A stretch of DNA of 10,467 nt from Escherichia coli (GCA_025544715.1 GCA_025544715.1_4109.7); one strand, 5' to 3'. Positions 1,850-10,467 are shown, numbered from the stretch's first letter. Notes: a model not told the origin generated them from the letters alone. Program-made: numbers and translations.

Positions 1850-1903
1850 GTACTTTTTATCAAATACTTTAAAATAGTTTTCAGTACTCAAAGATTATAC
1901 AAT

Positions 1904-1947
1904 AGATACACTCCTGCACCCTGTGGGCTAGTGAGCTATCTCTCAAT
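1904..1947 (-). ncRNA. conserved element copy 1 (candidate small RNA or 5' leader)
   Basis: minus-sense GAGATAGCTCACTAGCCCACAGGGTGCAGGAGTGTATCT behind promoter 1954-1982; alignable with plus copy 6581-6618. Confidence 0.25.
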
Positions 1948-1953
1948 GAATAT

Positions 1954-1982
1954 ATAATAGCAAAATGGCTGACCGAAGTCAA
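1954..1982 (-). promoter_or_regulatory. sigma70-like promoter driving conserved element copy 1
   Basis: minus strand TTGACT (1977-1982), 17 nt, TATTAT (1954-1959); lies directly downstream of the stop at 1992. Confidence 0.4.
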
Positions 1983-1991
1983 CCACTTTTT

Positions 1992-2129
1992 TCATTTATT
2001 TTTAGCTTTTAGAATCGCCGCCTTTCGCGTCATGCCTTGCTTGATGTACTCCTTTACTTTCGCTTTACGTGCTTTCGCTTTATCTGCTTTCGTTTTAGGA
2101 GTACTGTAAATTATACCGTTAGGATTCAT
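1992..2129 (-). CDS. small Lys/Ala-rich basic protein (45 aa, MNPNGIIYSTPKTKADKAKARKAKVKEYIKQGMTRKAAILKAKNK)
   Basis: Translated by hand; ATG 2129 immediately follows the TAA of the upstream 29-aa ORF (TAAATG); GGTGA 6 nt upstream; stop TGA 1992-1994. Confidence 0.4.
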   Translation of the reverse strand: MNPNGIIYSTPKTKADKAKARKAKVKEYIKQGMTRKAAILKAKNK

Positions 2130-2219
2130 TTAAATCACCATAAAGAATAGATAGGTTACTAACAACGCCGCGATCAATGCACCGATCACCGCCGAACTGT
2201 AATAAGCCAATGATTTCAT
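2130..2219 (-). CDS. hydrophobic 29-aa peptide, predicted single transmembrane helix (MKSLAYYSSAVIGALIAALLVTYLFFMVI)
   Basis: Translated by hand; ATG overlaps the TGA of the upstream gene in an ATGA arrangement (translational coupling); uninterrupted hydrophobic core; no own SD. Confidence 0.35.
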   Translation of the reverse strand: MKSLAYYSSAVIGALIAALLVTYLFFMVI

Positions 2220-2368
2220 TTTTTAGCCTGAAAGTAATGTTTAATTTGTGCGGCGGTCAGTGCACAATTACGCAGGAAGTTTTCTGTATAACTGCGACGA
2301 GTACTGAAAGAGAATTGACCTTTGCCGTTACCGATAGTAACATCAAACCGAGCGTTGTATTGTTTCAT
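2216..2368 (-). CDS. hypothetical protein (50 aa; track ORF trimmed to MKQYNARFDV...)
   Basis: ATG 2368 with strong SD AGGAGA, downstream of stem-loop 2387-2406 and promoter (-10 2419-2424, -35 2441-2446). Confidence 0.55.
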   Translation of the reverse strand: MKQYNARFDVTIGNGKGQFSFSTRRSYTENFLRNCALTAAQIKHYFQAKK

Positions 2369-2386
2369 TTTGTTTCTCCTGTTATT

Positions 2387-2446
2387 GGGGAGAATCATTT
2401 CTCCCCTTCATGTAAAACATTATACAGTACTAAAAACTAATTGCAA
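2387..2446 (-). promoter_or_regulatory. promoter + 5' UTR stem-loop cassette
   Basis: TTGCAA 2441-2446, 16 nt, TATAAT 2419-2424; stem-loop GGGGAGAA/TTCTCCCC 2387-2406. Confidence 0.65.
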
Positions 2447-2449
2447 GTA

Positions 2450-2596
2450 CTATTTTTTAGATTTACGCAAACTTTCTACCATCTCAGGAGTAAGGCCAGG
2501 CGGGTAGGAAACCACTTCATCAACGAAACGTAAAGGGAATACCCCAGCGAAAGGTGAACATGCTTTCTTAGTATTACTCTTTTTTGATGCTTTCAT
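2450..2596 (-). CDS. small basic protein (48 aa, MKASKKSNTKKACSPFAGVFPLRFVDEVVSYPPGLTPEMVESLRKSKK)
   Basis: Translated by hand; ATG 2596 with SD AAGGAAT ~8 nt upstream, after stem-loop 2616-2635; stop TAG 2450-2452 abuts -35 of the next cassette. Confidence 0.5.
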   Translation of the reverse strand: MKASKKSNTKKACSPFAGVFPLRFVDEVVSYPPGLTPEMVESLRKSKK

Positions 2597-2615
2597 TTCA
2601 TATTCCTTAATTAGT

Positions 2616-2675
2616 GGGGAGAATCATTTCTCCCCTTCATGTAAAACATTATACAGTACTGAAAACTAATTGCAA
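2616..2675 (-). promoter_or_regulatory. promoter + 5' UTR stem-loop cassette
   Basis: TTGCAA 2670-2675, 16 nt, TATAAT 2648-2653; stem-loop 2616-2635, identical in sequence to the one at 2387-2406. Confidence 0.65.
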
Positions 2676-2875
2676 GTACTTTCTGAAAGTAAATGCTCAT
2701 AAGCTGCATTGACTACATTTTCAATAACCGACTGTACAGGAAGATCCCCCACGTCCTGGCTATAGTAGAAATCGCTTACAGTGGTGTTATCGTATGCAAA
2801 TACTTTACCAGGTACGGCATCAATCACATACATATTAACCTTTAAGATGTCGATTTTATCCTGTACAGTAAGCAT
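2666..2875 (-). CDS. hypothetical protein (69 aa)
   Basis: ORF track; ATG 2875 is 5 nt after the stop of 2881..3138 (operon partner); last codons and stop read through the spacer and -35 of cassette 2616-2675. Confidence 0.55.
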   Translation of the reverse strand: MLTVQDKIDILKVNMYVIDAVPGKVFAYDNTTVSDFYYSQDVGDLPVQSVIENVVNAAYEHLLSESTCN

Positions 2876-2880
2876 ATTAA

Positions 2881-3138
2881 TTAACCTTTTAAGTACTGGC
2901 TTAAGTAGTCTTGTTGATCTTCGGTGGTTGCCGCCATCTTCCCTAGTACTGGATTGATGATATAATCCTGATCCGCCTTATCAGTACTAGCAACCGGACG
3001 GATACGGGCCATTTCCTGGGCTTGTTCCACACTGTAACGCTCATAAAGGCGGCATTCTTCCGGTGTTAGCATTGCATCAATACGTTTCATTGGTTTAATG
3101 ATGCTTTCAACTTCATTGAGTACTTGATTAACGTTCAT
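2881..3138 (-). CDS. hypothetical protein (85 aa)
   Basis: ORF track; GGGGA SD 8 nt upstream of ATG 3138; no own cassette promoter, likely co-transcribed with 3190..3459; contains four AGTACT sites in three frames. Confidence 0.6.
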   Translation of the reverse strand: MNVNQVLNEVESIIKPMKRIDAMLTPEECRLYERYSVEQAQEMARIRPVASTDKADQDYIINPVLGKMAATTEDQQDYLSQYLKG

Positions 3139-3189
3139 GGTATAATCCCCAATATAAGCGGCCTAAATCAACCGCTAACGATGTTTTGA

Positions 3190-3459
3190 TTAATAGGTGT
3201 AGGGTTGACGCTCAAACAATGATTGCACGTTGTACGCCCCGCTAATGGGCTTCGCTGTCAAATCAATTTTATATTGTTCACGCTTAAAGATAATAAAACG
3301 ACAATTGTTCTTAACATCAAAATTGATTGAACGTTCCAGGAGTTTACCATCGTGCACAAATACAAGATAACCGCTCGCTACTTGTTTTGTAGTACTGGTT
3401 GCAACCATAGACCGACGAACATGTGTACCTGCATCGATTAAAGTACTGATATTTTTCAT
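3190..3459 (-). CDS. hypothetical protein (89 aa)
   Basis: ORF track; strong SD AAGAGGA 9 nt upstream of ATG 3459; preceded by a distinct stem-loop (3498-3526). Confidence 0.6.
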   Translation of the reverse strand: MKNISTLIDAGTHVRRSMVATSTTKQVASGYLVFVHDGKLLERSINFDVKNNCRFIIFKREQYKIDLTAKPISGAYNVQSLFERQPYTY

Positions 3460-3497
3460 TATACTATCCTCTTAAGTTAGTTTAATTTCTTTCCCCT

Positions 3498-3534
3498 ATG
3501 CAGACACTATATCAAAGTATCTGCATAAAGTAAA
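3498..3534 (-). promoter_or_regulatory. possible weak promoter plus distinct 5' stem-loop for operon 3459->2666
   Basis: minus strand TTTACT (3529-3534), 17 nt, TATAGT (3506-3511); inverted repeat ATGCAGA/TCTGCAT 3498-3526; not the cassette type. Confidence 0.3.
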
Positions 3535-3539
3535 GCTAA

Positions 3540-3884
3540 TTAAAGATCTTTTTTGCGTTTAACATCAGTTACCGAACTGTAAACAGTGATATTATTGTCA
3601 CGGCAAAAACGTGAAAGGTATGATCCGCGTGTAAACTCCTTCCCTTCCATATCAATAACCTTGCTAAATTCTTCCATTGCTACGGTGTCAAAGTGATCCC
3701 CATAACCATATTGGAACGGCACGTTTACCACTTCAATAAAATTACCATCGATTTCAACGTCTACACTTAAAGAAAAATAAGTGTTACCATATGAAGCCTG
3801 GAACCAACGCCGAGCGGCAATATGTACAACTTCAACAGAAGACAGGTTGATATTTTGTGCAGCGATGGTGTTGATGTTAGCCAT
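3540..3884 (-). CDS. hypothetical protein (114 aa, MANINTIAAQ...)
   Basis: ORF track; SD AAGAGGAAA; hairpin-less cassette promoter 3918-3946. Confidence 0.65.
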   Translation of the reverse strand: MANINTIAAQNINLSSVEVVHIAARRWFQASYGNTYFSLSVDVEIDGNFIEVVNVPFQYGYGDHFDTVAMEEFSKVIDMEGKEFTRGSYLSRFCRDNNITVYSSVTDVKRKKDL

Positions 3885-3917
3885 TTTTGTTTCCTCTTAG
3901 TTGTCTTGATAAAATCT

Positions 3918-3946
3918 ATTATGCCAGTACTATCAAACTATGTCAA
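3918..3946 (-). promoter_or_regulatory. sigma70-like early promoter (variant cassette without GGGGAG hairpin)
   Basis: TTGACA 3941-3946, 17 nt, CATAAT 3918-3923; near-identical to 775-803. Confidence 0.6.
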
Positions 3947-3965
3947 TAGTACTGTGATAATAATT

Positions 3966-4109
3966 TTACTTACTTTTTGCTTTCTTTACAGCTTCCACCT
4001 GGTCGGCCCACTCTTTACCCCATACTTGAGCGTTATAGTGATACTGACAAAGAGCAACGCCCCGTTTCAAACCAGTAATAGATTTTTTACCACATTGACA
4101 AGTTTTCAT
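3966..4109 (-). CDS. small Cys/His-containing protein, possible zinc-binding (47 aa, MKTCQCGKKSITGLKRGVALCQYHYNAQVWGKEWADQVEAVKKAKSK)
   Basis: Translated by hand; ATG 4109 with SD AAGAGGAAA after stem-loop 4128-4147; C-x-C ... C-x2-H spacing. Confidence 0.5.
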   Translation of the reverse strand: MKTCQCGKKSITGLKRGVALCQYHYNAQVWGKEWADQVEAVKKAKSK

Positions 4110-4127
4110 TTTTAGTTTCCTCTTAGT

Positions 4128-4187
4128 GGGGAGAACCATTTCTCCCCTTGATGTAATGTATTATACTTTATCTGACTTACTTTGCAA
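4128..4187 (-). promoter_or_regulatory. promoter + 5' UTR stem-loop cassette
   Basis: TTGCAA 4182-4187, 16 nt, TATAAT 4160-4165; stem-loop GGGGAGAA/TTCTCCCC 4128-4147. Confidence 0.65.
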
Positions 4188-4194
4188 GTACTTT

Positions 4195-4422
4195 TTAGTT
4201 TAATTCATCCAGGCATAAGATACGATCTACGCCGAGATCCGTTAAGCTAATGGTTGGCACTTGATAGGTTTCAATGTATTCTACACTAGCCCACTGACCG
4301 AACTCATTCACCGCCCAGGTATTCATTGCAAAATGTAATTCCGCACCTTTCTTATTAGTAATTACAGCAACAGTAGAAGAAGTGCCAGTAGTACCAGTTA
4401 CATAAGCGATTACGATAGCCAT
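4195..4422 (-). CDS. hypothetical protein (75 aa)
   Basis: ORF track; SD AGGAAT; promoter -10 4456-4461, -35 4479-4484. Confidence 0.6.
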   Translation of the reverse strand: MAIVIAYVTGTTGTSSTVAVITNKKGAELHFAMNTWAVNEFGQWASVEYIETYQVPTISLTDLGVDRILCLDELN

Positions 4423-4455
4423 TGTTTTGATTCCTATTCAGTAGTTGATGTATGT

Positions 4456-4484
4456 ATTATGTCAGTACTTAAAACTATTGTCAA
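4456..4484 (-). promoter_or_regulatory. sigma70-like early promoter, no stem-loop
   Basis: TTGACA 4479-4484, 17 nt, CATAAT 4456-4461. Confidence 0.55.
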
Positions 4485-4492
4485 ACTATTTT

Positions 4493-4645
4493 TTAAAGTT
4501 TATCAATGATTGATGCCGTTTCATTGATAGTCTTGCCGTGTTTTGCACACGCAATAACTGCTTTAAATTCCTTTGATGACCAATCTTTCTTGCTGCATAC
4601 TGACATTACTTGTAACGTGAAACAATCCAGTTCATAAGTATTCAT
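4493..4645 (-). CDS. hypothetical protein (50 aa, MNTYELDCFTLQVMSVCSKKDWSSKEFKAVIACAKHGKTINETASIIDKL)
   Basis: Translated by hand; ATG 4645 with SD GAGGA 8 nt upstream; cassette 4666-4718; stop TAA inside TTTTTTAAA tract of next cassette. Confidence 0.5.
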   Translation of the reverse strand: MNTYELDCFTLQVMSVCSKKDWSSKEFKAVIACAKHGKTINETASIIDKL

Positions 4646-4665
4646 CTTTATATCCTCAGTTAGTT

Positions 4666-4718
4666 AAGGTGTTTCGCCTTGATGTAATTAATTATACGCT
4701 AATCTCTTAATCGTGCAA
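4666..4718 (-). promoter_or_regulatory. promoter + weak 5' stem-loop
   Basis: TTGCAC 4713-4718, 16 nt, TATAAT 4691-4696; short hairpin AAGGTG/CGCCTT 4666-4680. Confidence 0.55.
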
Positions 4719-4825
4719 GTACTTTTTATTAGTTTTTATAAAATACTTTCTACGCCCTCAATCGCATTCTAACGACCATAACGCCACCAGCTAGGGCGAT
4801 GTATCAGATAATCAGTTTAATGCGT

Positions 4826-4839
4826 TAGAATCGATTCTA
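4826..4839. repeat. 14-bp perfect palindrome TAGAATCGATTCTA in a non-coding spacer
   Basis: self-complementary; overlaps an inverted copy of the TTCTAACG motif. Confidence 0.8.
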
Positions 4840-4871
4840 GGCGGTGCTAGTGGACTGGAATACTATAGACA

Positions 4872-4899
4872 CAAAAAAGCCCACTGTTTATAGTGGGCT
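4872..4899 (-). terminator. Rho-independent terminator
   Basis: minus strand AGCCCACT-ATAAAC-AGTGGGCT followed by UUUUUUGU; preceded by AGTACTGAATCA. Confidence 0.7.
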
Positions 4900-4920
4900 A
4901 GTGATTCAGTACTTTAATTG

Positions 4921-5403
4921 TTATGCTTCAACTTTGCGATGAGATTCGATCCATTCCTCACGGGTCAATCCGCTTTCTTTGATAGCATCCAGTACTACCG
5001 CGATGCAATTACCGCGTACTGGTACAGTGTATTCCTCGCCATTATCCAGAACTACAGTAACACGTTCTTGAATCCATTTTTTAGGTTTAGATTCTGGCTT
5101 ATCTTCACCATACTTAACCGCCAGGGCTTTATGTGCCATTTCGACAACTACTTCCAGATCCAATCCAGACACCGCCGCCTGGATACTTTCAATTGTTGCT
5201 TGCAGTTCTGCTTCACGGGCTTTTTTCTGTTCTTCCAGTTCTGCTACCTTTTTGGCTTGCAGTTCTTTCGCTTCGCTGTACGCAATGTTAAAATTGTTGC
5301 GTACTGCTTTCATGGTATCGTTATCCAGGTCAGCCAGCAATTCAGCAGCAATAACAGTATCGTTTGAAATCAGTGCTTTCAGGAATGATTTTACATTAGC
5401 CAT
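4921..5403 (-). CDS. hypothetical protein with central Glu/Lys/Ala-rich predicted coiled-coil (160 aa; start moved to MANVKSF...)
   Basis: The track start at 5418 is a TTG codon; ATG 5403 has SD GAGGA 9 nt upstream; promoter -10 TAGAAT 5527-5532, -35 5549-5554; intrinsic terminator downstream (4872-4899). Confidence 0.65.
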   Translation of the reverse strand: MANVKSFLKALISNDTVIAAELLADLDNDTMKAVRNNFNIAYSEAKELQAKKVAELEEQKKAREAELQATIESIQAAVSGLDLEVVVEMAHKALAVKYGEDKPESKPKKWIQERVTVVLDNGEEYTVPVRGNCIAVVLDAIKESGLTREEWIESHRKVEA

Positions 5404-5526
5404 TTTATAAATCCTCAATTAAAGTTTAGTTTACGTTAGTTAGTGTATCAAAGTTTTATTGACGTGTCCAGTTTTTCATTCGACTTACTGGCGGTCTACT
5501 TAGTGTTCCCCGTCTTGATGTAATAC

Positions 5527-5554
5527 ATTCTACGCCTTTTTGTGGTAATGTCAA
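5527..5554 (-). promoter_or_regulatory. sigma70-like promoter with long (~115 nt) leader
   Basis: TTGACA 5549-5554, 16 nt, TAGAAT 5527-5532; ATG at 5403. Confidence 0.5.
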
Positions 5555-5608
5555 CTACTTTTTTAAAACTATTTTCAAAGTATTCTAGTACTACAATCCT
5601 ACAATAAC

Positions 5609-5635
5609 AAAAAAGCCCACTGCTTATAGTGGGCT
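5609..5635 (-). terminator. Rho-independent terminator (near-identical copy of the 4872-4899 module)
   Basis: AGCCCACT-ATAAGC-AGTGGGCT followed by UUUUUUGUUAUUG; preceded by AGTACTGAATCA. Confidence 0.7.
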
Positions 5636-5652
5636 AGTGATTCAGTACTAGA

Positions 5653-5952
5653 TTATAAACAGTTAATTACTCCTGTATGCGTTACTTTCTCCGTATCCAT
5701 GACAGTGACAGAACCACGTTTAGCACTGGCATCATAATAAATTGTTGTGCTACCTTTATCATCTTCTTCATGGAACGGGCCGTTTTTAAATGCTTCCGGC
5801 TGCAATTCCAGATCCTTTAAAACAATCTCGCCTGTACTTTCATTGGTCATTGCTACTGTGCACTGAATGAATTTATCACTACTCACATCTAACGATGCGT
5901 TAACAGCGAAAGAGGAAACAGATAAAGCCAGGGCGATGATTGCAATTTTCAT
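5653..5952 (-). CDS. predicted secreted/periplasmic protein with N-terminal signal peptide (99 aa, MKIAIIALALSVSSFAVNA|S...)
   Basis: ORF track; hydrophobic N-terminus with AxA-like cleavage motif; its promoter cassette lies across the N gap at 6127-6186; terminator 5609-5635 downstream. Confidence 0.6.
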   Translation of the reverse strand: MKIAIIALALSVSSFAVNASLDVSSDKFIQCTVAMTNESTGEIVLKDLELQPEAFKNGPFHEEDDKGSTTIYYDASAKRGSVTVMDTEKVTHTGVINCL

Positions 5953-6110
5953 TTGNNNNNNNNNNNNNNNNNNNNNNNNNNNNNNNNNNNNNNNNNNNNN
6001 NNNNNNNNNNNNNNNNNNNNNNNNNNNNNNNNNNNNNNNNNNNNNNNNNNNNNGTTAACAGCGAAAGAGGAAACAGATAAAGCCAGGGCGATGATTGCAA
6101 TTTTCATTTG
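5899..6110. repeat. exact 57-bp direct duplication flanking the N gap (5899-5955 = 6054-6110)
   Basis: identical strings GTTAACAGCGAAAGAGGAAACAGATAAAGCCAGGGCGATGATTGCAATTTTCATTTG on both sides; most likely overlapping contig ends, so the true sequence probably joins 5955 to 6111. Confidence 0.8.
5956..6053. other. 98-nt run of N (assembly or scaffold gap)
   Basis: unbroken N run; both flanks are an identical 57-bp sequence. Confidence 0.95.
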
Positions 6111-6126
6111 ATTATCCTTAGTTACC

Positions 6127-6186
6127 AGGGGGAACCTCTCCCCCTTGCGATGTAAAATATTATACAGTACTAAAAACTATTATCAA
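6127..6186 (-). promoter_or_regulatory. promoter + 5' UTR stem-loop cassette (serves the gene across the N gap)
   Basis: TTGATA 6181-6186, 16 nt, TATAAT 6159-6164; stem-loop AGGGGGA/TCCCCCT 6127-6145. Confidence 0.6.
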
Positions 6187-6191
6187 GTACT

Positions 6192-6428
6192 TTATGATTT
6201 TTTATAAAACATTTCAGCAGTGATATTTTTACCCGTTGGCTGTACTTTATCCAGAATTTTTTGATGCCCTGGAAGTCCAAATGAATATGATCCGTAAACC
6301 GTAAACCAGTAGTTACCCTCAGTGTTTACATGTACAGCACAATAGGGAACGCCCCGCGATTCATCACCAATAAAGTGTGATACCGTTCCCGTTACATTAG
6401 CAGACGTTGATTTGATTTGTTCAAGCAT
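6192..6428 (-). CDS. hypothetical protein (78 aa)
   Basis: ORF track; SD AAGGAAT; cassette with stem-loop 6449-6467, -10 6477-6482, -35 6499-6504. Confidence 0.6.
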   Translation of the reverse strand: MLEQIKSTSANVTGTVSHFIGDESRGVPYCAVHVNTEGNYWFTVYGSYSFGLPGHQKILDKVQPTGKNITAEMFYKKS

Positions 6429-6448
6429 TTTCTTATTCCTTAGTTACC

Positions 6449-6504
6449 AGGGGGAACCGCTCCCCCTATGCAAAACATTATACGCGTTTAAAAACTAATA
6501 GCAA
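6449..6504 (-). promoter_or_regulatory. promoter + 5' UTR stem-loop cassette
   Basis: TTGCTA 6499-6504, 16 nt, TATAAT 6477-6482; stem-loop AGGGGGA/TCCCCCT 6449-6467. Confidence 0.6.
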
Positions 6505-6537
6505 GTATTTTAATAAAAAGTATTTGAAAAATAATTG

Positions 6538-6566
6538 TTGACAACTGCATCCAGTACTGGCATAAT
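6538..6566 (+). promoter_or_regulatory. plus-strand sigma70-like promoter, divergent from the 6449-6504 cassette
   Basis: TTGACA 6538-6543, 17 nt spacer containing AGTACT, CATAAT 6561-6566; no plus-strand ORF downstream. Confidence 0.5.
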
Positions 6567-6572
6567 TACTAC

Positions 6573-6680
6573 ATAAAGACGAGATAGTCACTAACCCACC
6601 GGGTGCATAGATCCGTCTATTAAATGATTCAGTACTGAAAAAGTAACGGGGAGTTATTATCTCCCCGCGTTGTTATTTGG
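6573..6680 (+). ncRNA. candidate small non-coding RNA (~105 nt) of the conserved-element family
   Basis: own promoter 6538-6566, conserved element 6581-6618, palindrome TTCAGTACTGAA 6628-6639, terminator hairpin 6647-6667 with U tract; longest ATG ORF is 4 codons. Confidence 0.35.
6647..6680. terminator. bidirectional intrinsic terminator
   Basis: CGGGGAG-TTATTAT-CTCCCCG hairpin; U-rich on the plus side (GUUGUUAUUU) and on the minus side (UUACUUUUUC); ends both the plus small transcript and minus gene 6673..6894. Confidence 0.6.
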
Positions 6681-6894
6681 TAAGGTATAAACAGAAGTCA
6701 CCTTTATTTGCTACGCCGCCAGTGTAACGCGATGAATAGTTAGAAACGTCCTGGACTTCTGCTATTACCAGTGTATCATCATTCAATTCGTCGCAGAAGC
6801 AAACGGCTGGATCTTTTACGCCGATCTTGTCGGCATGTTCCCGCATAGATTTAACCAGTGCTTCCAGTTGAGAAAGAGTAGTGATATTAGCCAT
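6673..6894 (-). CDS. hypothetical protein (73 aa; track ORF trimmed to MANITTLSQ...)
   Basis: ATG 6894 with SD GAGGAAA downstream of stem-loop 6914-6931; the track start at 6924 lies inside the stem-loop; bidirectional terminator 6647-6667 just after the stop. Confidence 0.6.
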   Translation of the reverse strand: MANITTLSQLEALVKSMREHADKIGVKDPAVCFCDELNDDTLVIAEVQDVSNYSSRYTGGVANKGDFCLYLTK

Positions 6895-6913
6895 TGTATT
6901 TTCCTCATTACCA

Positions 6914-6972
6914 GGGAGAACCATTTCTCCCCTCTATGTAAACTATTATACAGTACTGGAAACTAATTGCAA
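6914..6972 (-). promoter_or_regulatory. promoter + 5' UTR stem-loop cassette
   Basis: TTGCAA 6967-6972, 16 nt, TATAAT 6945-6950; stem-loop GGGAGAA/TTCTCCC 6914-6931. Confidence 0.65.
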
Positions 6973-6980
6973 GTACTTTT

Positions 6981-7184
6981 TTAATTTAATTGCTTTAAAA
7001 CATACTCAAAGACACCACGCACATCATTGATCATCGCCTGGCGGTTAGCAGGTAACGCACCAAGATCGCCACTATCCCAGGCATTGATAAAACTCCCCAA
7101 ATCATGATAGATTTTATTCTGTAAGCCGATCAACTGTAATTCTTTTTCTTCAAGCTCTTTAATACGGTCGATTAAAAGACTCAT
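6981..7184 (-). CDS. hypothetical protein (67 aa; trimmed to MSLLIDRIKELEE...)
   Basis: ATG 7184 with SD GAGGA; 17 nt after the stop of 7202..7489; shares a 20-nt RBS/start module with that gene. Confidence 0.5.
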   Translation of the reverse strand: MSLLIDRIKELEEKELQLIGLQNKIYHDLGSFINAWDSGDLGALPANRQAMINDVRGVFEYVLKQLN

Positions 7185-7201
7185 TAGATAATCCTCAGTA
7201 C

Positions 7202-7489
7202 TTAATTGTAAGATCCGCAACGGTTACAATAGTGCCCGTCTTCCTCGTCATCGTCAACGAATTGACTAACGAAATTATCTACTTTCTCTTTGAGATTCTG
7301 ATAATTGTTTTCTACTTCCTTTAAACGTTCCTGGTAGTATTCCAGTGCTTGCACATACGCCGCCTCAGCCGTTTTAGCTCTTAAGGCTAAATTCATGCCA
7401 CGCGTTTCATCGTACATCCAAAAGCCATCGGTGCACTCACTGATTGACAATGATTTGGTTAACACTTTATAGTCAATTACTTTGCTCAT
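7202..7489 (-). CDS. hypothetical protein with C-terminal C-x2-C (95 aa; trimmed to MSKVIDYK...)
   Basis: ATG 7489 with SD GAGGA 9 nt upstream; the track start at 7528 lies inside the hairpin 7508-7526; no own promoter, likely co-transcribed with 7546..7785. Confidence 0.55.
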   Translation of the reverse strand: MSKVIDYKVLTKSLSISECTDGFWMYDETRGMNLALRAKTAEAAYVQALEYYQERLKEVENNYQNLKEKVDNFVSQFVDDDEEDGHYCNRCGSYN

Positions 7490-7507
7490 TAGATAATCCT
7501 CAGTAAA

Positions 7508-7526
7508 GGCGGGAACCACACCCGCC
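7508..7526 (-). terminator. intercistronic GC hairpin (attenuator or processing site?)
   Basis: GGCGGG-AACCACA-CCCGCC between stop at 7546 and ATG at 7489; followed by UUUACU on the minus strand; preceded by the 14-bp palindrome 7531-7544. Confidence 0.3.
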
Positions 7527-7530
7527 ATTG

Positions 7531-7544
7531 ATTCAGTACTGAAT
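7531..7544. repeat. 14-bp perfect palindrome ATTCAGTACTGAAT
   Basis: self-complementary; related copies TGATTCAGTACT at 4902-4913, 5638-5649, 6625-6636 and in reverse at 10171-10185. Confidence 0.8.
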
Positions 7545-7545
7545 G

Positions 7546-7785
7546 TTACATTCCAACCATTGCAGCACGGATCGCCGTAGTGCTATACTTGAATCCGTCC
7601 GGCGTTGTAGTAGTACCGTTGGCTTTTAATCTGCGGTACATACATTGGGCCGCAATATCTTTAGTTTTACATTGTGCGATGCAACTTTGAGCAAGCCGAT
7701 ATAATGACTCACCGTTATTAATCCACAATGAAACATTCCAATGAGTTTTGTTTTTGTGCCCGTTGTAAGTTTTAGTACTAGCCAT
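7546..7785 (-). CDS. hypothetical protein, paralog of 9143..9382 (79 aa)
   Basis: ORF track; SD GAGGA; cassette 7808-7869; shares GHKNKTHWNVSLWINN and an identical C-terminal 19 aa with 9143..9382. Confidence 0.65.
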   Translation of the reverse strand: MASTKTYNGHKNKTHWNVSLWINNGESLYRLAQSCIAQCKTKDIAAQCMYRRLKANGTTTTPDGFKYSTTAIRAAMVGM

Positions 7786-7807
7786 TTTTAAATCCTCGTT
7801 TGATTGA

Positions 7808-7869
7808 GCAGGGGAACCATTCCCCCGCCTCGATATAAAGTATTATACGCCGTTAAACTTAGTTTGCAA
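7808..7869 (-). promoter_or_regulatory. promoter + 5' UTR stem-loop cassette
   Basis: TTGCAA 7864-7869, 16 nt, TATAAT 7842-7847; stem-loop 7808-7828. Confidence 0.65.
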
Positions 7870-7882
7870 GTACTTTTTTAAA

Positions 7883-8494
7883 TTAATATTCGATTGATTC
7901 TACTACGCCATCAATCACATTGAATTGATATTCGTTACCCTCGATCAGTGCTACGATGTTTTCAGTAGTGAATTGATCCTCATATGCATTCTCTAAATCA
8001 CGGTACAACTTGCGTGACAATTCACGAATAGTATCAGTGAGTAGTTCCTCAAGCTCATTAACTAACGTTTCTTGTTTTGCGGTTAAATCAGTGTAAGCCG
8101 ATTCAATGTACCCGCTTACAGTATTCTCATGCGAGTAGCGAGAGTGAGAACGCTTTACACTCATTGCCAAATCATCTTCATTCAGCAGGTGACGGATTGA
8201 GCGATACTTAGTTAACGCCTTAACCTTGCGTAAAAACTTCACTGCGTCAACGTGGTCAGTACTGATTGATGCACCGTCACCTTGCGACCAAAAACCACTG
8301 AATTGCAATTCCGCGTCAGTAATACCATACTCCGGCAACAATGTTTCTTTATAGTATTCATATACGCCCTCAGAAAAGAAATCATCACCGCTTGAACGTT
8401 CCCGATCCCGAACCAGTTCGATAGCTGACGTTTGTTGTTCTGCGTTCAATTCAGAAAAAGCCATAACATAAGTAGTAGTAGTGATAGTTTTCAT
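7883..8494 (-). CDS. hypothetical acidic protein (203 aa), largest ORF in the window
   Basis: ORF track; SD GAGGG 9 nt upstream of ATG 8494; promoter -10 8527-8532, -35 8549-8554, with a second complete cassette further upstream. Confidence 0.7.
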   Translation of the reverse strand: MKTITTTTYVMAFSELNAEQQTSAIELVRDRERSSGDDFFSEGVYEYYKETLLPEYGITDAELQFSGFWSQGDGASISTDHVDAVKFLRKVKALTKYRSIRHLLNEDDLAMSVKRSHSRYSHENTVSGYIESAYTDLTAKQETLVNELEELLTDTIRELSRKLYRDLENAYEDQFTTENIVALIEGNEYQFNVIDGVVESIEY

Positions 8495-8526
8495 TTTGTA
8501 ACCCTCATTCAGTAGTTGATGTAAGT

Positions 8527-8554
8527 ATTATACGCTTTTAAAAACAATTGTCAA
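8527..8554 (-). promoter_or_regulatory. sigma70-like early promoter, no stem-loop
   Basis: TTGACA 8549-8554, 16 nt, TATAAT 8527-8532. Confidence 0.55.
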
Positions 8555-8603
8555 ACTATTTTATCAGGGGAGTTTTTCGTAAGTCTTACTCCTGGACTAC
8601 TTA

Positions 8604-8671
8604 ACGGGGAGTTACTTATTCATTCCCCGTCCTGATGTAAAACATTATACGCCTTTAAACATAGTTTGCAA
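8604..8671 (-). promoter_or_regulatory. orphan promoter + stem-loop cassette with no ORF of its own (tandem with 8527-8554)
   Basis: TTGCAA 8666-8671, 16 nt, TATAAT 8644-8649; stem-loop ACGGGGA/TCCCCGT 8604-8630; the next ATG-initiated ORF is only 5 codons. Confidence 0.5.
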
Positions 8672-8708
8672 GTACTTTTTAAAAAATAGTTTTAATCACT
8701 TTTATATA

Positions 8709-8752
8709 GATACACTCCCGCACCCTATGGGCTATCGCCTTGTGTCCGGCTT
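8709..8752 (-). ncRNA. conserved element copy 4 (candidate small RNA or 5' leader)
   Basis: minus-sense ..GATAGCCCATAGGGTGCGGGAGTGTATCT behind promoter 8759-8787. Confidence 0.25.
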
Positions 8753-8758
8753 GTAAGT

Positions 8759-8787
8759 ATTATCTCACTAAGCCGGATAATGGTCAA
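8759..8787 (-). promoter_or_regulatory. sigma70-like promoter driving conserved element copy 4
   Basis: minus strand TTGACC (8782-8787), 17 nt, GATAAT (8759-8764). Confidence 0.35.
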
Positions 8788-8793
8788 GTACTT

Positions 8794-9060
8794 TTATTCA
8801 AGTACTGCAATCTTTTTAGTACTGTACACAGTAACACGGTTGCCCTTGCGGTCGTGCTTTATTTCTACCACGCGACGCGATACACTATCAGGACGCTTTA
8901 AAGCAGATAGCCAGTACTGAATAGATCGGGCTGTACTTCTCTTTACTACGGCCCAACGTTTACCACGTTCCGATTGTACGCCCATATCTTTAAACGTCGC
9001 CCCGTCCTGGCGTGCTGCAATCCGAGCAAGTTCACGCGTAGCAAAGTAAGTAATATTCAT
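8794..9060 (-). CDS. hypothetical basic protein (88 aa; trimmed to MNITYFATRELARIAARQ...)
   Basis: ATG 9060 with GGGG SD-like 9 nt upstream; the track start at 9114 lies upstream of the -10 (9097-9102). Confidence 0.5.
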   Translation of the reverse strand: MNITYFATRELARIAARQDGATFKDMGVQSERGKRWAVVKRSTARSIQYWLSALKRPDSVSRRVVEIKHDRKGNRVTVYSTKKIAVLE

Positions 9061-9096
9061 GCTGATACCCCTATCGTTGTTGTATAAAAGAAATCT

Positions 9097-9121
9097 ATTA
9101 TAAAGTACTATCACCGTGCAA
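9097..9121 (-). promoter_or_regulatory. degenerate cassette promoter (spacer only 13 nt)
   Basis: TATAAT 9097-9102 and TTGCAC 9116-9121 are too close for a canonical sigma70 promoter; looks like a cassette with ~3 nt deleted from the spacer. Confidence 0.25.
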
Positions 9122-9142
9122 TAGTACTTTTAATCTATTCTC

Positions 9143-9382
9143 TTACATTCCAACCATTGCAGCACGGATCGCCGTAGTACTATACTTGAATCCGTCCGGT
9201 GTTTTATCTTGTCCAGTCTGTTCTAAAAATAGCATCATATGACGGGCCGCATCATTGCGATTAGTGTTAGCGGCAATAAAGTCCAGGGCCAACCGATATA
9301 ATGATTCATCATTATTAATCCAAAGGCTTACATTCCAATGAGTTTTATTTTTGTGACCTAAGAACATTTTTGATTTAGCCAT
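9143..9382 (-). CDS. hypothetical protein, paralog of 7546..7785 (79 aa)
   Basis: ORF track; SD GAGGA 9 nt upstream of ATG 9382; cassette 9406-9462; near-identical nucleotide sequence to 7546..7785 at both ends. Confidence 0.65.
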   Translation of the reverse strand: MAKSKMFLGHKNKTHWNVSLWINNDESLYRLALDFIAANTNRNDAARHMMLFLEQTGQDKTPDGFKYSTTAIRAAMVGM

Positions 9383-9405
9383 TTTAAAATCCTCTGAATT
9401 ATGGC

Positions 9406-9462
9406 GGGGAACTATTCCCCACCTGATAGAAAGTATTATACATTAATCGAATTACTTTGCAA
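9406..9462 (-). promoter_or_regulatory. promoter + 5' UTR stem-loop cassette
   Basis: TTGCAA 9457-9462, 16 nt, TATAAT 9435-9440; stem-loop GGGGAA/TTCCCC 9406-9420. Confidence 0.65.
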
Positions 9463-9465
9463 GTA

Positions 9466-9657
9466 CTATTTTTTGCAATATTCGTAAATCTCTTTATATC
9501 CGCTTAGTACTACATCGCCCCGCTGCAATGTGATAGATTCGAAATCATCATGATTAACAGCGTTTAACCAGTTTAAAGCCTTCATCTTATTTGGGTATTT
9601 TTGTTCGTGCTGGTTTTCCCCATCAATCAACCAGTACTGTATAATTATCTCACGCAT
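9466..9657 (-). CDS. hypothetical protein (63 aa)
   Basis: ORF track; AAGGG SD; 11 nt after the stop of 9669..10031 (operon partner); stop TAG just upstream of the next cassette -35. Confidence 0.55.
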   Translation of the reverse strand: MREIIIQYWLIDGENQHEQKYPNKMKALNWLNAVNHDDFESITLQRGDVVLSGYKEIYEYCKK

Positions 9658-9668
9658 ACATATTACCC

Positions 9669-10031
9669 TTATTCGTAAATCTTGCCACTGTCAGCCCATA
9701 CCAGGAAACGCGGCATATTATCCCATGCATCTTGTTTCAAGTTTAAACCGTGTAATACTTCGGTACTTTCCATTCCTGGTACTGGTTTACTATACACCGC
9801 AAACATTTCGCCCATGTACTGATAAGCCATCGTTAAATCACTGGCGATCATCTTATGGATCATCGCATCAAGCATCACAGTAGCGGCGTATTGTTCACGC
9901 TTAAGCGGTAACATTTTAATAAGTTCCCGATAAGCTGAAATATGAATTTTTACAGTCTCAGCGGGGAGATCTTTCATCTCTTCACGAAAGTTAACCAGGT
10001 TAGCAATGATTTTAGTGATTTGAGTCGCCAT
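9669..10031 (-). CDS. hypothetical protein (120 aa)
   Basis: ORF track; ATG 10031 downstream of imperfect stem-loop 10052-10076 and promoter (-10 TAGAAT 10087-10092, -35 TTGCAA 10109-10114). Confidence 0.65.
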   Translation of the reverse strand: MATQITKIIANLVNFREEMKDLPAETVKIHISAYRELIKMLPLKREQYAATVMLDAMIHKMIASDLTMAYQYMGEMFAVYSKPVPGMESTEVLHGLNLKQDAWDNMPRFLVWADSGKIYE

Positions 10032-10051
10032 CGTTTTAATCTCTTAAAAGT

Positions 10052-10114
10052 GAGTCGGGAGCGTATCCCCCGTCTCGATGTAAAACATTCTACACCTTTC
10101 CCAATACGTTGCAA
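10052..10114 (-). promoter_or_regulatory. promoter + imperfect 5' stem-loop
   Basis: TTGCAA 10109-10114, 16 nt, TAGAAT 10087-10092; imperfect hairpin 10052-10076. Confidence 0.55.
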
Positions 10115-10348
10115 GTACTTTCTACAAATACTTTTAAAATAGTTTTCTTTCTATATAGGAGTACTATCATCCAGTACTGAATCAATCAAGGGAGTACAAT
10201 TATTCAGTACTATACCGTAAAACGGCCTCAGTCGCTTTCTAACGCATTAATACACCTAAGCTATACATTTGCACCACTCCCAACAATCCAGGGCGTTACA
10301 GGCCGTTTAAACGCGTTAAATTATTTTCAATTATTTTGTTTTTAGCTA

Positions 10349-10376
10349 TTGACTCAGTACAGAAAAAGCGTATAAT
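10349..10376 (+). promoter_or_regulatory. plus-strand sigma70-like promoter driving conserved element copy 3
   Basis: TTGACT 10349-10354, 16 nt, TATAAT 10371-10376; transcript start ATTACTACATAGACG.. matches that of the 6538-6566 promoter. Confidence 0.5.
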
Positions 10377-10382
10377 TACTAC

Positions 10383-10428
10383 ATAGACGCGAGAAAGCGG
10401 ATACCCCAGGGGGTGCCGAGATCCGTCC
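10383..10428 (+). ncRNA. candidate small RNA, conserved element copy 3 (3' end undefined)
   Basis: own promoter 10349-10376; element GAGAAAGCGGATACCCCAGGGGGTGCCGAGATCCGTCC 10391-10428 alignable with 6581-6618. Confidence 0.3.
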
Positions 10429-10467
10429 AAAATTCATAAAATTTAAAAAGGATACACTCCCGCACCT

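Follow-up and report, generated by a model that had tools for sequence, protein, structure and literature searches.

The OOP RNA of phage lambda is a short RNA that starts at a host-type promoter, is bounded by promoter and terminator, converges on the 3′ end of a gene and overlaps the coding region of its target. The nut sites (boxA/boxB) of lambdoid phages and the put sites of HK022 are small hairpin RNAs located just past early promoters. In T4-type phages, composites of a stem-loop and a sigma70 early promoter have been described as promoter-early stem-loop (PeSL) cassettes (PMC2839356, PMC4122927). In PA5oct, a jumbo phage related to the one studied here, two abundant non-coding RNAs of the terminal repeat, ncRNA001 and ncRNA002, were detected by RNA-seq from early infection (PMC7318152). 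Here we analysed a 10,467-nt stretch of DNA from an Escherichia coli assembly (GCA_025544715.1), referred to below as the window, in which an initial annotation had proposed a small RNA family consisting of five copies of a short conserved element. Selection very probably acts on the sense-strand RNA of this element, as indicated by compensatory changes, wobble-only variation and the fixed place of the copies behind promoters.

Copies of the element in the window

The motif GGTGCRGGAGTGTATC was found at 1905–1920(−), 8709–8724(−) and 10451–10466(−), that is three times compared with 0.08 expected, and 0/200 shuffles reached 3. The motif GGGTGCNNAGATCCGTC was found at 6601–6617(+) and 10411–10427(+), twice compared with 0.09 expected, and 3/200 shuffles reached 2. 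When a covariance model trained on 33 copies was scored at every window position, exactly four full copies were obtained with 50.6–57.9 bits, and the next best position scored 9.3 bits. By motif counts and by the model, the five copies of the initial annotation were found at their places, the fifth being cut by the window end.

The element spans ∼50–58 nt from the transcript start. It consists of hairpin 1 (HP1, with a 3–5 bp stem and an A-rich loop of 6–8 nt), a linker of 3–4 nt, the block R-CCC-AYN-GGGUGC and the tail G-Y-R-Y-C-Y. The block can fold on itself into hairpin 2 (HP2), and its GGGUGC part is able to pair with the tail six nt on as an alternative helix (HP3). The copies and their parts are as follows.

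1894–1951, minus strand, gene direction: copy 1, 56.5 bits
1945–1942 with 1935–1932, minus strand: HP1 of copy 1, UGAG/CUCA, loop AGAUAG
1928–1918, minus strand: HP2 of copy 1, GCCC-ACA-GGGU
1921–1915 with 1910–1904, minus strand: HP3 of copy 1 (alternative helix), GGGUGCA with UGUAUCU
6571–6628, plus strand, antisense to genes: copy 2, 57.9 bits
6578–6580 with 6587–6589, plus strand: HP1 of copy 2, GAC/GUC
6594–6604, plus strand: HP2 of copy 2
6601–6605 with 6614–6618, plus strand: HP3 of copy 2, GGGUG with CGUCU
8698–8755, minus strand, gene direction: copy 3, 50.6 bits
8750–8748 with 8739–8737, minus strand: HP1 of copy 3, GCC/GGC, loop GGACACAA
8732–8722, minus strand: HP2 of copy 3
8725–8719 with 8714–8708, minus strand: HP3 of copy 3
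10381–10438, plus strand, antisense, member of a convergent pair: copy 4, 51.3 bits
10388–10390 with 10397–10399, plus strand: HP1 of copy 4, CGC/GCG
10403–10414, plus strand: HP2 of copy 4
10411–10415 with 10424–10428, plus strand: HP3 of copy 4
10445–10467, minus strand, gene direction: copy 5, cut by the window end, only HP3 and U-run left
10466–10450, minus strand: HP3 of copy 5, GGUGCG...GUAUCC, followed by a U-run at 10449–10445

The element is therefore longer than the ∼40 nt given in the initial annotation, which had also omitted the 5′ hairpin of copy 3 (8750–8737) by placing this copy at 8709–8736, and had taken the variable HP1 loop for a conserved box, GAGA(T/A)AG. The convergence of copies 4 and 5 with a gap of ∼20 nt was confirmed, as 22 nt separate 10428 from 10451. 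The HP3 of copy 5 followed by UUUUU looks like the unit's own terminator, which would give an RNA of ∼60 nt; full-length orthologues of this copy are present in G17 at 19405, with a promoter, and in EC22.5-2 at 31002. A coding reading was rejected, because the copies vary by 1–2-nt indels in the HP1 loop and contain stop codons. The only open reading frame (ORF) overlapping a copy was at 10296–10430 (minus strand, TTG start, 44 aa), antisense to copy 4.

Location of the window and distribution of the element

The right-hand 4.4 kb of the window matched 185 phage records, the best being Escherichia phage EC22.5-2 with 90.7% identity over 95% of the query. Nearly all full-length matches were Asteriusvirus jumbo coliphages (121Q, PBECO4, G17, fEgEco12 and others). 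In genomes with defined ends, the window match was located at ∼1.26–5.3 kb, under a feature named 'Direct Terminal Repeats'. For fEgEco12, a direct terminal repeat (DTR) of 20,993 bp was obtained by PhageTerm and restriction mapping (PMC13070987). Judged by these matches, the window belongs to the ∼21-kb DTR of a jumbo coliphage of the 121Q/G17 type (Asteriusvirus). Since the matches fall under the annotated DTR, the window should represent about half of it, with the right end ∼1.2 kb from the physical genome end. As the closest matches are Asteriusvirus jumbo phages, a T4 origin was ruled out, and the link to T4 small RNAs made earlier is to be replaced accordingly. The credible genes in the window are all small and all on the minus strand, so the plus-strand units are indeed antisense to the genes, as previously noted. 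Each of these genes has its own near-consensus sigma70 promoter and a GGGGAG...CUCCCC leader hairpin, and comparison of the neighbouring window proteins with Pfam and PHROGs gave only matches of unknown function.

The covariance-model search that had been suggested gave 91 matches in the window and eight phage genomes or parts of genomes (G17, RaK2, GAP32, CBB, Serratia phage BF, Erwinia phage Hallingskeid, Klebsiella phage fENko-Kae01, in short Kae01, and EC22.5-2), with 10–15 copies per terminal-repeat region. In the complete 352-kb genome of EC22.5-2, all nine model matches lay within 30.8–49.6 kb; a plain pattern search of the whole genome returned the same nine together with one variant and one unrelated terminator. 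In CBB (repeat 1–22,456) and fENko-Kae01 (repeat 1–19,736), for which 10–15 kb beyond the repeat was also searched, all matches were inside the repeat. Wherever the limits of the repeat are known, the element was restricted to the terminal-repeat region. Among 74 IMG/VR loci with a homologue of the 203-aa ORF of the window (7883–8494), the element was found in contigs related to RaK2-like phages only, namely five contigs of 355–371 kb and four short fragments; the remaining 65 loci, from other phage contigs, were without it. In total, at least 10 genomes and contigs, from five or more phage genera, contributed 120 distinct copies, and the lowest model E-values were 1e-15. When IMG/VR was scanned with the exact pattern GGGTGCNNNAGTGTATC, 108 stretches were returned; nearly all were chance matches in unrelated contigs, and the scan was useful for 121Q, RaK2 and BF only. 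A mimicked host sequence was also considered and rejected: the 58-nt element had no blastn match in 5,426 complete E. coli genomes, although a query of this length makes the test a weak one.

Just past the position of the right window end, G17 has ∼1.9 kb without annotated gene beside the genome end (19600–20900). This region contains the repeated sequences TAGCCGTC and CGCCCAAAAT(T/C)C, the latter of which resembles the tails of end-proximal element copies. Both may serve in packaging or in recognition of the genome end.

Structure of the element RNA

On the model alignment, which leans towards the structure supplied, 4/4 pairs of HP1 changed on both sides, using GC, CG, AU, UA, GU and UG; this was the outcome of the check for compensatory changes proposed with the initial annotation. 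The covariation score of HP1 was 0.356, compared with 0.148 ± 0.011 for shuffles and 0.03–0.10 when the partner was slid. In a per-copy search of 82 distinct copies, a stem of at least 3 bp was found in 87% and one of at least 4 bp in 60%, compared with 44% and 18% in shuffled sequences. More than 25 different stem sequences were observed, e.g. GGAA/UUCC, GACG/CGUC, AGCA/UGCU, ACCG/CGGU and UCCUG/CAGGA. HP1 was missing from the RNAalifold result on the raw MAFFT alignment because the hairpins were out of register there, which was cured by the covariance-model alignment and the per-copy hairpin search with shuffle control.

HP2 (R-CCC-AYN-GGG-U) was near-invariant. Its outer pair was A-U in about half of the copies and G·U in the other half, and one copy showed the double change CCU/AGG. 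For HP3, 90% of cells were paired, compared with 34–64% when slid. In the 120 distinct copies, the tail base opposite U was A (80) or G (40) and no other, and the base opposite the next G was U (88) or C (30), with U in both copies where that G is A. Two tail positions were paired in 120/120 copies, and at least five of the six pairs were kept in 114/120. The sixth pair was swapped from C-G to G-C in one IMG/VR contig (L132). Because most tail pairs are G·U, which become C·A mismatches on the other strand, formation of HP3 is limited to RNA read from the promoter strand. Of the three helices, HP1 shows compensatory changes, HP3 shows wobble-compatible changes with one swap, and HP2 is essentially invariant.

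The pairing in HP3 also explains the two subfamilies proposed earlier, since the tails GUAUCU and CCGUCY both pair with GGGUG. The two tails do exist, but they are pair-preserving variants of one helix and are not linked to the strand: GUAUCU was found in the antisense stand-alone copies RaK2 17965(−) and 10897(−), and CCGUCY in the gene-direction copies CBB 984(+) and BF 3690(+). HP2 and HP3 are mutually exclusive, as the GGG run is common to both, and their predicted energies were −3.8 ± 0.5 and −4.3 ± 2.2 kcal/mol, respectively. RNAalifold favoured HP2, and single-sequence folds chose HP2 or HP3. Two further pairings were rejected. A closing stem AGACG/CGUCU in the single-sequence fold of window copy 2 lacked conservation among the remaining copies and is in competition with HP1; pairing of the HP1 loop with the tail as a pseudoknot (AGAUA/UAUCU) suited some copies only and showed no covariation across loop types.

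Promoters, terminators and genomic settings

It was found that, across the genomes, every copy is preceded at a fixed distance by TTGAC(A/T)-N16–17-TAnnAT. The sigma70-like promoters reported for the four full copies were confirmed with scores of 10–11/12; the fifth copy, which had been given none, also has one in relatives (G17 19405). The promoters and terminators of the window copies are as follows.

1982–1954, minus strand: promoter of copy 1, TTGACT-17-TATTAT, 10/12 with TG, −10 box at 1959–1954
within 1954–1989, minus strand: terminator-like hairpin AAAGTGGTTGACTTCGGTCAGCCATTTT (hairpin 1989–1962, 12 pairs), enclosing the copy 1 −35 box TTGACT
6538–6566, plus strand: promoter of copy 2, TTGACA-17-CATAAT, 11/12, extended −10 TG
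6646–6680, both strands by terminator scan: two-way intrinsic terminator (hairpin 6646–6668)
8787–8759, minus strand: promoter of copy 3, TTGACC-17-GATAAT, 10/12
10349–10376, plus strand: promoter of copy 4, TTGACT-16-TATAAT, 11/12

Judged from the −10 box, the predicted start is the A of 'ACAU...' or 'AUUCAU...', ∼5–7 nt past that box, which would place the element at the extreme 5′ end of the RNA. The copy 2 promoter is 85% identical, as an inverted repeat, to an ordinary gene promoter at 755–788. The promoter and HP1 variant of copy 3 recur in fENko-Kae01 at 7254, and not at the same-place copy in G17. Ordinary early genes of the window carry a cassette of sigma70 promoter, start ACAUCAAG, GGGGAG...CUCCCC hairpin, ACUAAC, Shine-Dalgarno sequence and ATG (repeat families D1–D3; e.g. 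1330–1420, 2370–2450, 2600–2680, 6107–6190 and 6900–6975). That HP1 occupies the exact place of the GGGGAG...CUCCCC hairpin suggests that the element evolved from such an ordinary leader.

The copies occur in three settings, which were tallied over 135 matches, not de-duplicated. In the first, a lone copy points in the gene direction (65/135 matches; window copies 1 and 3). The −35 box lies inside a terminator-like hairpin in most such copies of G17, RaK2, GAP32, CBB, BF and Hallingskeid, the element has no terminator, and an ordinary gene promoter follows 50–90 nt past it. The copy 1 composite of terminator and promoter is PeSL-like, with equivalents at G17 1461, 4213, 7482 and 10771 (annotated ARNold terminators). 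Its cassette of terminator, promoter and element is 74–83% identical in RaK2, K64-1, GAP32 and CBB, and the genes that follow the best-matching cassettes in GAP32 and RaK2 showed no detectable similarity to those of the window. Some cassette-gene pairs are syntenic, as the 203-aa gene at 7883–8494 is preceded by the element in RaK2, GAP32, CBB, BF and Kae01.

In the second setting, a lone copy is antisense to the genes (26/135 matches), and a two-way terminator, common to the converging gene, lies ∼45 nt on. Such units are ORF-free and ∼95–110 nt long: window 6571–6680, RaK2 17965(−) and 10897(−), Hallingskeid 12277(−) and 5064(−), and Kae01 10993(−) and 3300(−). In the window, the terminator at 6646–6680 (fold z = −2.99) closes both the copy 2 unit and the converging gene 6673–6924(−), so that the unit (promoter 6538, element 6571, end 6680; ∼105–110 nt) is bounded by promoter and terminator. 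The ORF-free unit ending in an intrinsic terminator that had been pointed out here was thereby confirmed, and the same design is present in RaK2, Hallingskeid and fENko-Kae01. By a strict rule (GC-rich hairpin and T-run within ∼110 nt), a terminator was found for 8/26 lone antisense compared with 1/65 lone gene-direction copies; several further antisense copies, window 6571–6680 included, pass by eye and by the terminator scan and not by this rule. The third setting comprises 22 convergent pairs, of which window copies 4 and 5 form one. Paired cores are 57 nt apart in CBB and GAP32, where the genome end is ∼1 kb away from one such pair. After HP3, a U-run is missing in most copies (mean 2.3–3.1 U in the next 8 nt); HP3 stands directly before a U-run, terminator-like, at window 10466–10445, G17 19405, GAP32 17324, CBB 15207 and L128:9356.

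The proposal of a small RNA family was hence supported with respect to a structured sense-strand RNA, in which HP1 covaries and the tail keeps its pairing with GGGUG, but it does not hold for the gene-direction copies, which account for nearly half of the matches. As these copies have no terminator and run into the promoter of the next gene, their sequence is not that of discrete small-RNA genes. The design of a stand-alone small-RNA gene, ORF-free with its own promoter and intrinsic terminator, was found at window 6538–6680 and in antisense copies of RaK2, Hallingskeid and Kae01, and not at the gene-direction copies 1894–1951 and 8698–8755.

Several other features were observed close to the copies. 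Directly upstream of the copy 1 terminator/promoter lies a 45-aa, very basic ORF (MNPNGIIYSTPKTKADKAKARKAKVKEYIKQGMTRKAAILKAKNK, 1992–2129, minus strand), which matches phrog_29913 (function unassigned) and has a homologue only in G17 among the relatives searched. The spacers of convergent pairs in relatives that do not infect E. coli contain a Fur-box-like palindrome (RaK2 8145–8167; Hallingskeid 2612–2630 and 3157–3168; Kae01 1036–1054 and 7312–7323; BF 1030–1048). The one in RaK2, GAGAATGATAATGATTCTC, agrees at 16/19 positions with the Fur-box consensus, GATAATGATAATCATTATC. The palindrome AGTACT adjoins the −35 box (TTGCAAGTACT) and the −10 box (CAGTACTGgCATAAT) and is found ∼10–15 nt after each element. 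It occurs 61 times in the window and 919 times in the 352-kb EC22.5-2 genome compared with ∼119 expected, with 133 occurrences in 20 kb covering the terminal-repeat region; other palindromes of the same composition occur 48–215 times in EC22.5-2. AGTACT may be a protein-binding or modification site.

Possible roles of the element

Essentially nothing has been charted of how RaK2/121Q-type jumbo phages take over the host early on, and almost every gene of the 20-kb repeat lacks an assigned function. Copies, promoters, restriction to the terminal repeat, covariation and strand specificity were observed here. The reading that we prefer, tentatively, is that the element is an RNA made for its own sake, early and from many copies, which would act in trans, with binding or titration of a conserved partner as the most plausible mode. 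Its transcription, by the sigma70 RNA polymerase of the host, would begin at strong early promoters once the terminal repeat enters the cell. The GGG run would then pair either with the CCC before it (HP2) or with the tail after it (HP3), and the invariant CCCAYNGGGUGC block would bind or titrate a conserved protein or RNA partner, perhaps as a decoy. Free RNAs of ∼60–110 nt would come from the antisense and paired units, and elsewhere the element would form the 5′ domain of longer transcripts. That the RNA itself is the product is suggested by two considerations: promoter and RNA alone are common to all three settings, and the gene in the first setting has its own promoter, with no downstream gene present in the other two.

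Several points weigh against this reading. Firing of the promoters, the positions of the RNA ends and action in trans are inferred from the sequence, as is the existence of the partner. About half of the copies have no terminator, so that a discrete small RNA would need processing. HP2 is near-invariant, so its pairing is not proven by covariation apart from the single double change; as GGGUG is invariant, HP3 is backed by one-sided wobble-compatible variation and one swapped pair, and a pure sequence preference Y-R-Y-C-Y may instead be the source of its pattern. The copies are akin within and between genomes, and the shuffle controls consequently overstate their independence. In the literature searched, no RNA-seq or northern data were found for this phage group.

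The strongest alternative, which we consider unlikely, is that the 5′ end of early transcripts carries a switch acting in cis. HP2 would serve as anti-terminator or anti-pause and HP3 as terminator or pause, and a factor on HP1 and the invariant block would decide the passage of polymerase; a milder form is a stabiliser of the mRNA 5′ end. The mutual exclusion of HP2 and HP3 at near-equal energy would suit such a switch, as would the U-run right after HP3 in some copies and the position of the element at the extreme 5′ end, in the place of the hairpin of ordinary early genes. However, the U-run is absent in most copies, for antisense and paired copies there is no gene downstream that a switch could control, and the gene's own promoter 50–90 nt on would bypass any leader in the gene-direction copies. 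Processive antitermination of the nut/put type, in which the nascent RNA with its two hairpins, with or without help from a phage protein, would make the polymerase that produced it ignore the terminators of the early region, seems very unlikely. It could account for an RNA that has two hairpins close to the promoter, a single covarying stem and a purine-rich loop, and for the regular spacing of ∼3 kb in a region dense in intrinsic terminators. The antisense copies, though, run into conserved terminators ∼45 nt downstream, which makes an antiterminator improbable, and read-through is not needed because every gene has its own promoter. Moreover, there is no boxA-like sequence, and the HP1 loop varies in length (6–8 nt) and sequence even among close relatives.

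R-loops prime replication at T4 oriF and oriG, and a role at the level of DNA or transcription, be it as R-loop replication primer, operator or PeSL-like cassette for recombination and shuffling, was also considered; we regard it as quite unlikely. The 12-nt core is near-invariant in sequence and at a fixed distance from the promoter, copies in either orientation cluster near the genome end, and a G-rich RNA is followed by AT-rich DNA, all of which would agree with it. So would the PeSL-like terminator/promoter part and the fact that some cassettes cross genera and their neighbours do not (PMC4122927). But the compensation in HP1 and the wobble-restricted tail with many G·U pairs point to selection on a single-stranded sense RNA and not on a duplex, the core has no symmetric palindrome beyond CCC/GGG, and a terminator 45 nt on would be unusual in a primer RNA. 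Shuffling, which has been proposed for PeSLs, may be an additional use of the cassette. That the similarity is due to chance, or merely accompanies promoter conservation without function, is so improbable that it is effectively refuted by the comparative data. The first ∼8 nt (ACAUCAAG / AUUCAUUG) are common to ordinary early transcripts and probably reflect a promoter or start-site constraint, but the motif counts are far above shuffles, 120 distinct copies exist, and the element is kept across genera where some flanking genes are not.

To return to an RNA acting in trans, a more specific form of it, which is doubtful at present, is that a bistable regulatory or decoy RNA, fired from 20–30 host-type promoters (10–15 per terminal repeat, with two repeats per genome) in the first minutes, captures or reprogrammes a conserved Enterobacterales factor. 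The candidate factor would be an RNA-binding defence or RNA-decay protein, or polymerase, and the CCC/GGG/YCY switch would set the face shown to it. If true, this would be an RNA-based device for host takeover or anti-defence without described counterpart. The element stands behind the strongest-looking host-type promoters of the terminal repeat, and is a defined RNA of ∼50 nt with a testable fold (HP1; HP2 versus HP3) that is conserved across genera better than some adjoining genes. The family is ready as a covariance model for annotating intergenic regions left blank in some records.

Other features of the window

A second repeated non-coding segment was observed on the minus strand at 195–310, 4735–4880 and 10205–10345. 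It contains the invariant boxes TAACGC and, ∼45 nt on, CGTTAGAA(T/A)GCG..AGG.CGT; in 4735–4880 the boxes are complementary, with a possible stem of 9 bp. In two of the three cases, the segment has a terminator on one side and the next promoter on the other. This segment may be another structured RNA family.

Chi sites (GCTGGTGG) were found at 283–290 and 4784–4791 (minus strand) in the window, and 28 times in EC22.5-2 compared with ∼2 expected. Nine of the EC22.5-2 sites, co-oriented with the genes, are within the ∼19-kb terminal-repeat region (30.3–49.7 kb); in our own reading of the Chi polarity, RecBCD that enters at the far end of the repeat would recognise these clustered sites.

A paralogous gene pair at 7546–7785 and 9143–9382 has repeat segments of 78% and 95% identity, and a 60-nt terminator module, AAAAAAGCCCACTG.TTATAGTGGGCTAGTGATTCAGTACT, is duplicated at 4854–4913 and 5590–5649 (families D10, D13 and D17 cover the gene pair and the module). 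Inside a small gene, an N run at 5956–6053 is flanked by an exact 57-nt duplicate (5899–5955 = 6054–6110). The N run together with the duplicate (5899–6110) looks like a scaffold-gap artefact and not biology.

Comparison with known systems

As in the initial annotation, the element could not be matched to a known RNA family. Against Rfam 15 (4227 models), the whole window at E ≤ 10 gave best scores of 17–28 bits compared with thresholds of 41–60, none of them on the element. Focused scans of window 6560–6690 and RaK2 17890–18040 gave only sub-threshold matches driven by the terminator, and ARAGORN detected no tRNA or tmRNA genes in the window. The element is unmentioned in the papers on RaK2-like phages found by literature searching. 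A type III toxin-antitoxin RNA, which is ToxI-like with ∼36-nt head-to-tail repeats beside an endoribonuclease toxin gene, was rejected because the copies are kilobases apart or convergent, never tandem. Comparison with the CsrA GGA motif, RfaH ops, DnaA boxes, sigma70-dependent pause elements, the RegB GGAG site, ToxI, preQ1 and guanidine riboswitches and tmRNA pseudoknot 1 gave in each case a fit to a subset of copies or a failure at key positions.

As in attenuators and riboswitch expression platforms, the element has three segments of which the middle one, GGGUGC, pairs with either neighbour, and a few copies are terminator-like by virtue of a U-run. The competing helices are present in nearly all copies, but the U-tract after HP3 in few (including window 10449–10445), no Rfam 15 aptamer was matched, and most copies have neither the U-run nor a gene directly downstream under control. 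With nut and put it shares a promoter-proximal hairpin RNA with a covarying stem and a purine-rich loop. In contrast to nut, there is no conserved boxA-like block upstream of or beside HP1, and the loops of 6–8 nt vary within one genome and show no GNRA-like pentaloop. Unlike both, the antisense copies end at terminators, and each gene has its own promoter and needs no antitermination.

The unit at window 6571–6680 resembles OOP in being short and ORF-free, with a host-type promoter, and in converging on the 3′ end of a gene. However, the units described here overlap only the shared terminator, and there is no similarity to OOP in sequence or structure. The PA5oct RNAs ncRNA001 and ncRNA002 resemble it as ORF-free units in a terminal repeat, but a homology was rejected, none being found by sequence or structure. 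In contrast to OOP and the PA5oct RNAs, the element is multi-copy and also forms the 5′ domain of gene-direction transcripts.

The closest likeness is to the PeSL cassettes. In both, a terminator-like stem-loop and a near-consensus sigma70 early promoter are repeated among small early genes of unassigned function. A PeSL lies in a variable region and is better conserved than its surroundings, and the cassettes described here may behave likewise, at least with respect to some of the adjoining genes. KVP40-type vibriophages match the terminator and promoter of copy 1 with 90% identity over 40 nt, and a stem-loop directly upstream of or overlapping the promoter, as in PeSLs, was found at window 1989–1962 and at most gene-direction copies, and not at antisense copies. 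The differences are that in a PeSL the cassette runs to the Shine-Dalgarno sequence and start codon of the following gene, whereas here the 50–58-nt element and then a second ordinary promoter follow, that antisense and convergent copies have no PeSL counterpart, and that no RNA structure has been described for PeSLs. From the sequence comparisons, the element appears to be a PeSL-type early cassette carrying an undescribed structured RNA, some copies of which would be stand-alone small-RNA genes. The idea of PeSLs as mobile terminator/promoter cassettes would thereby be extended to cassettes with an RNA payload.

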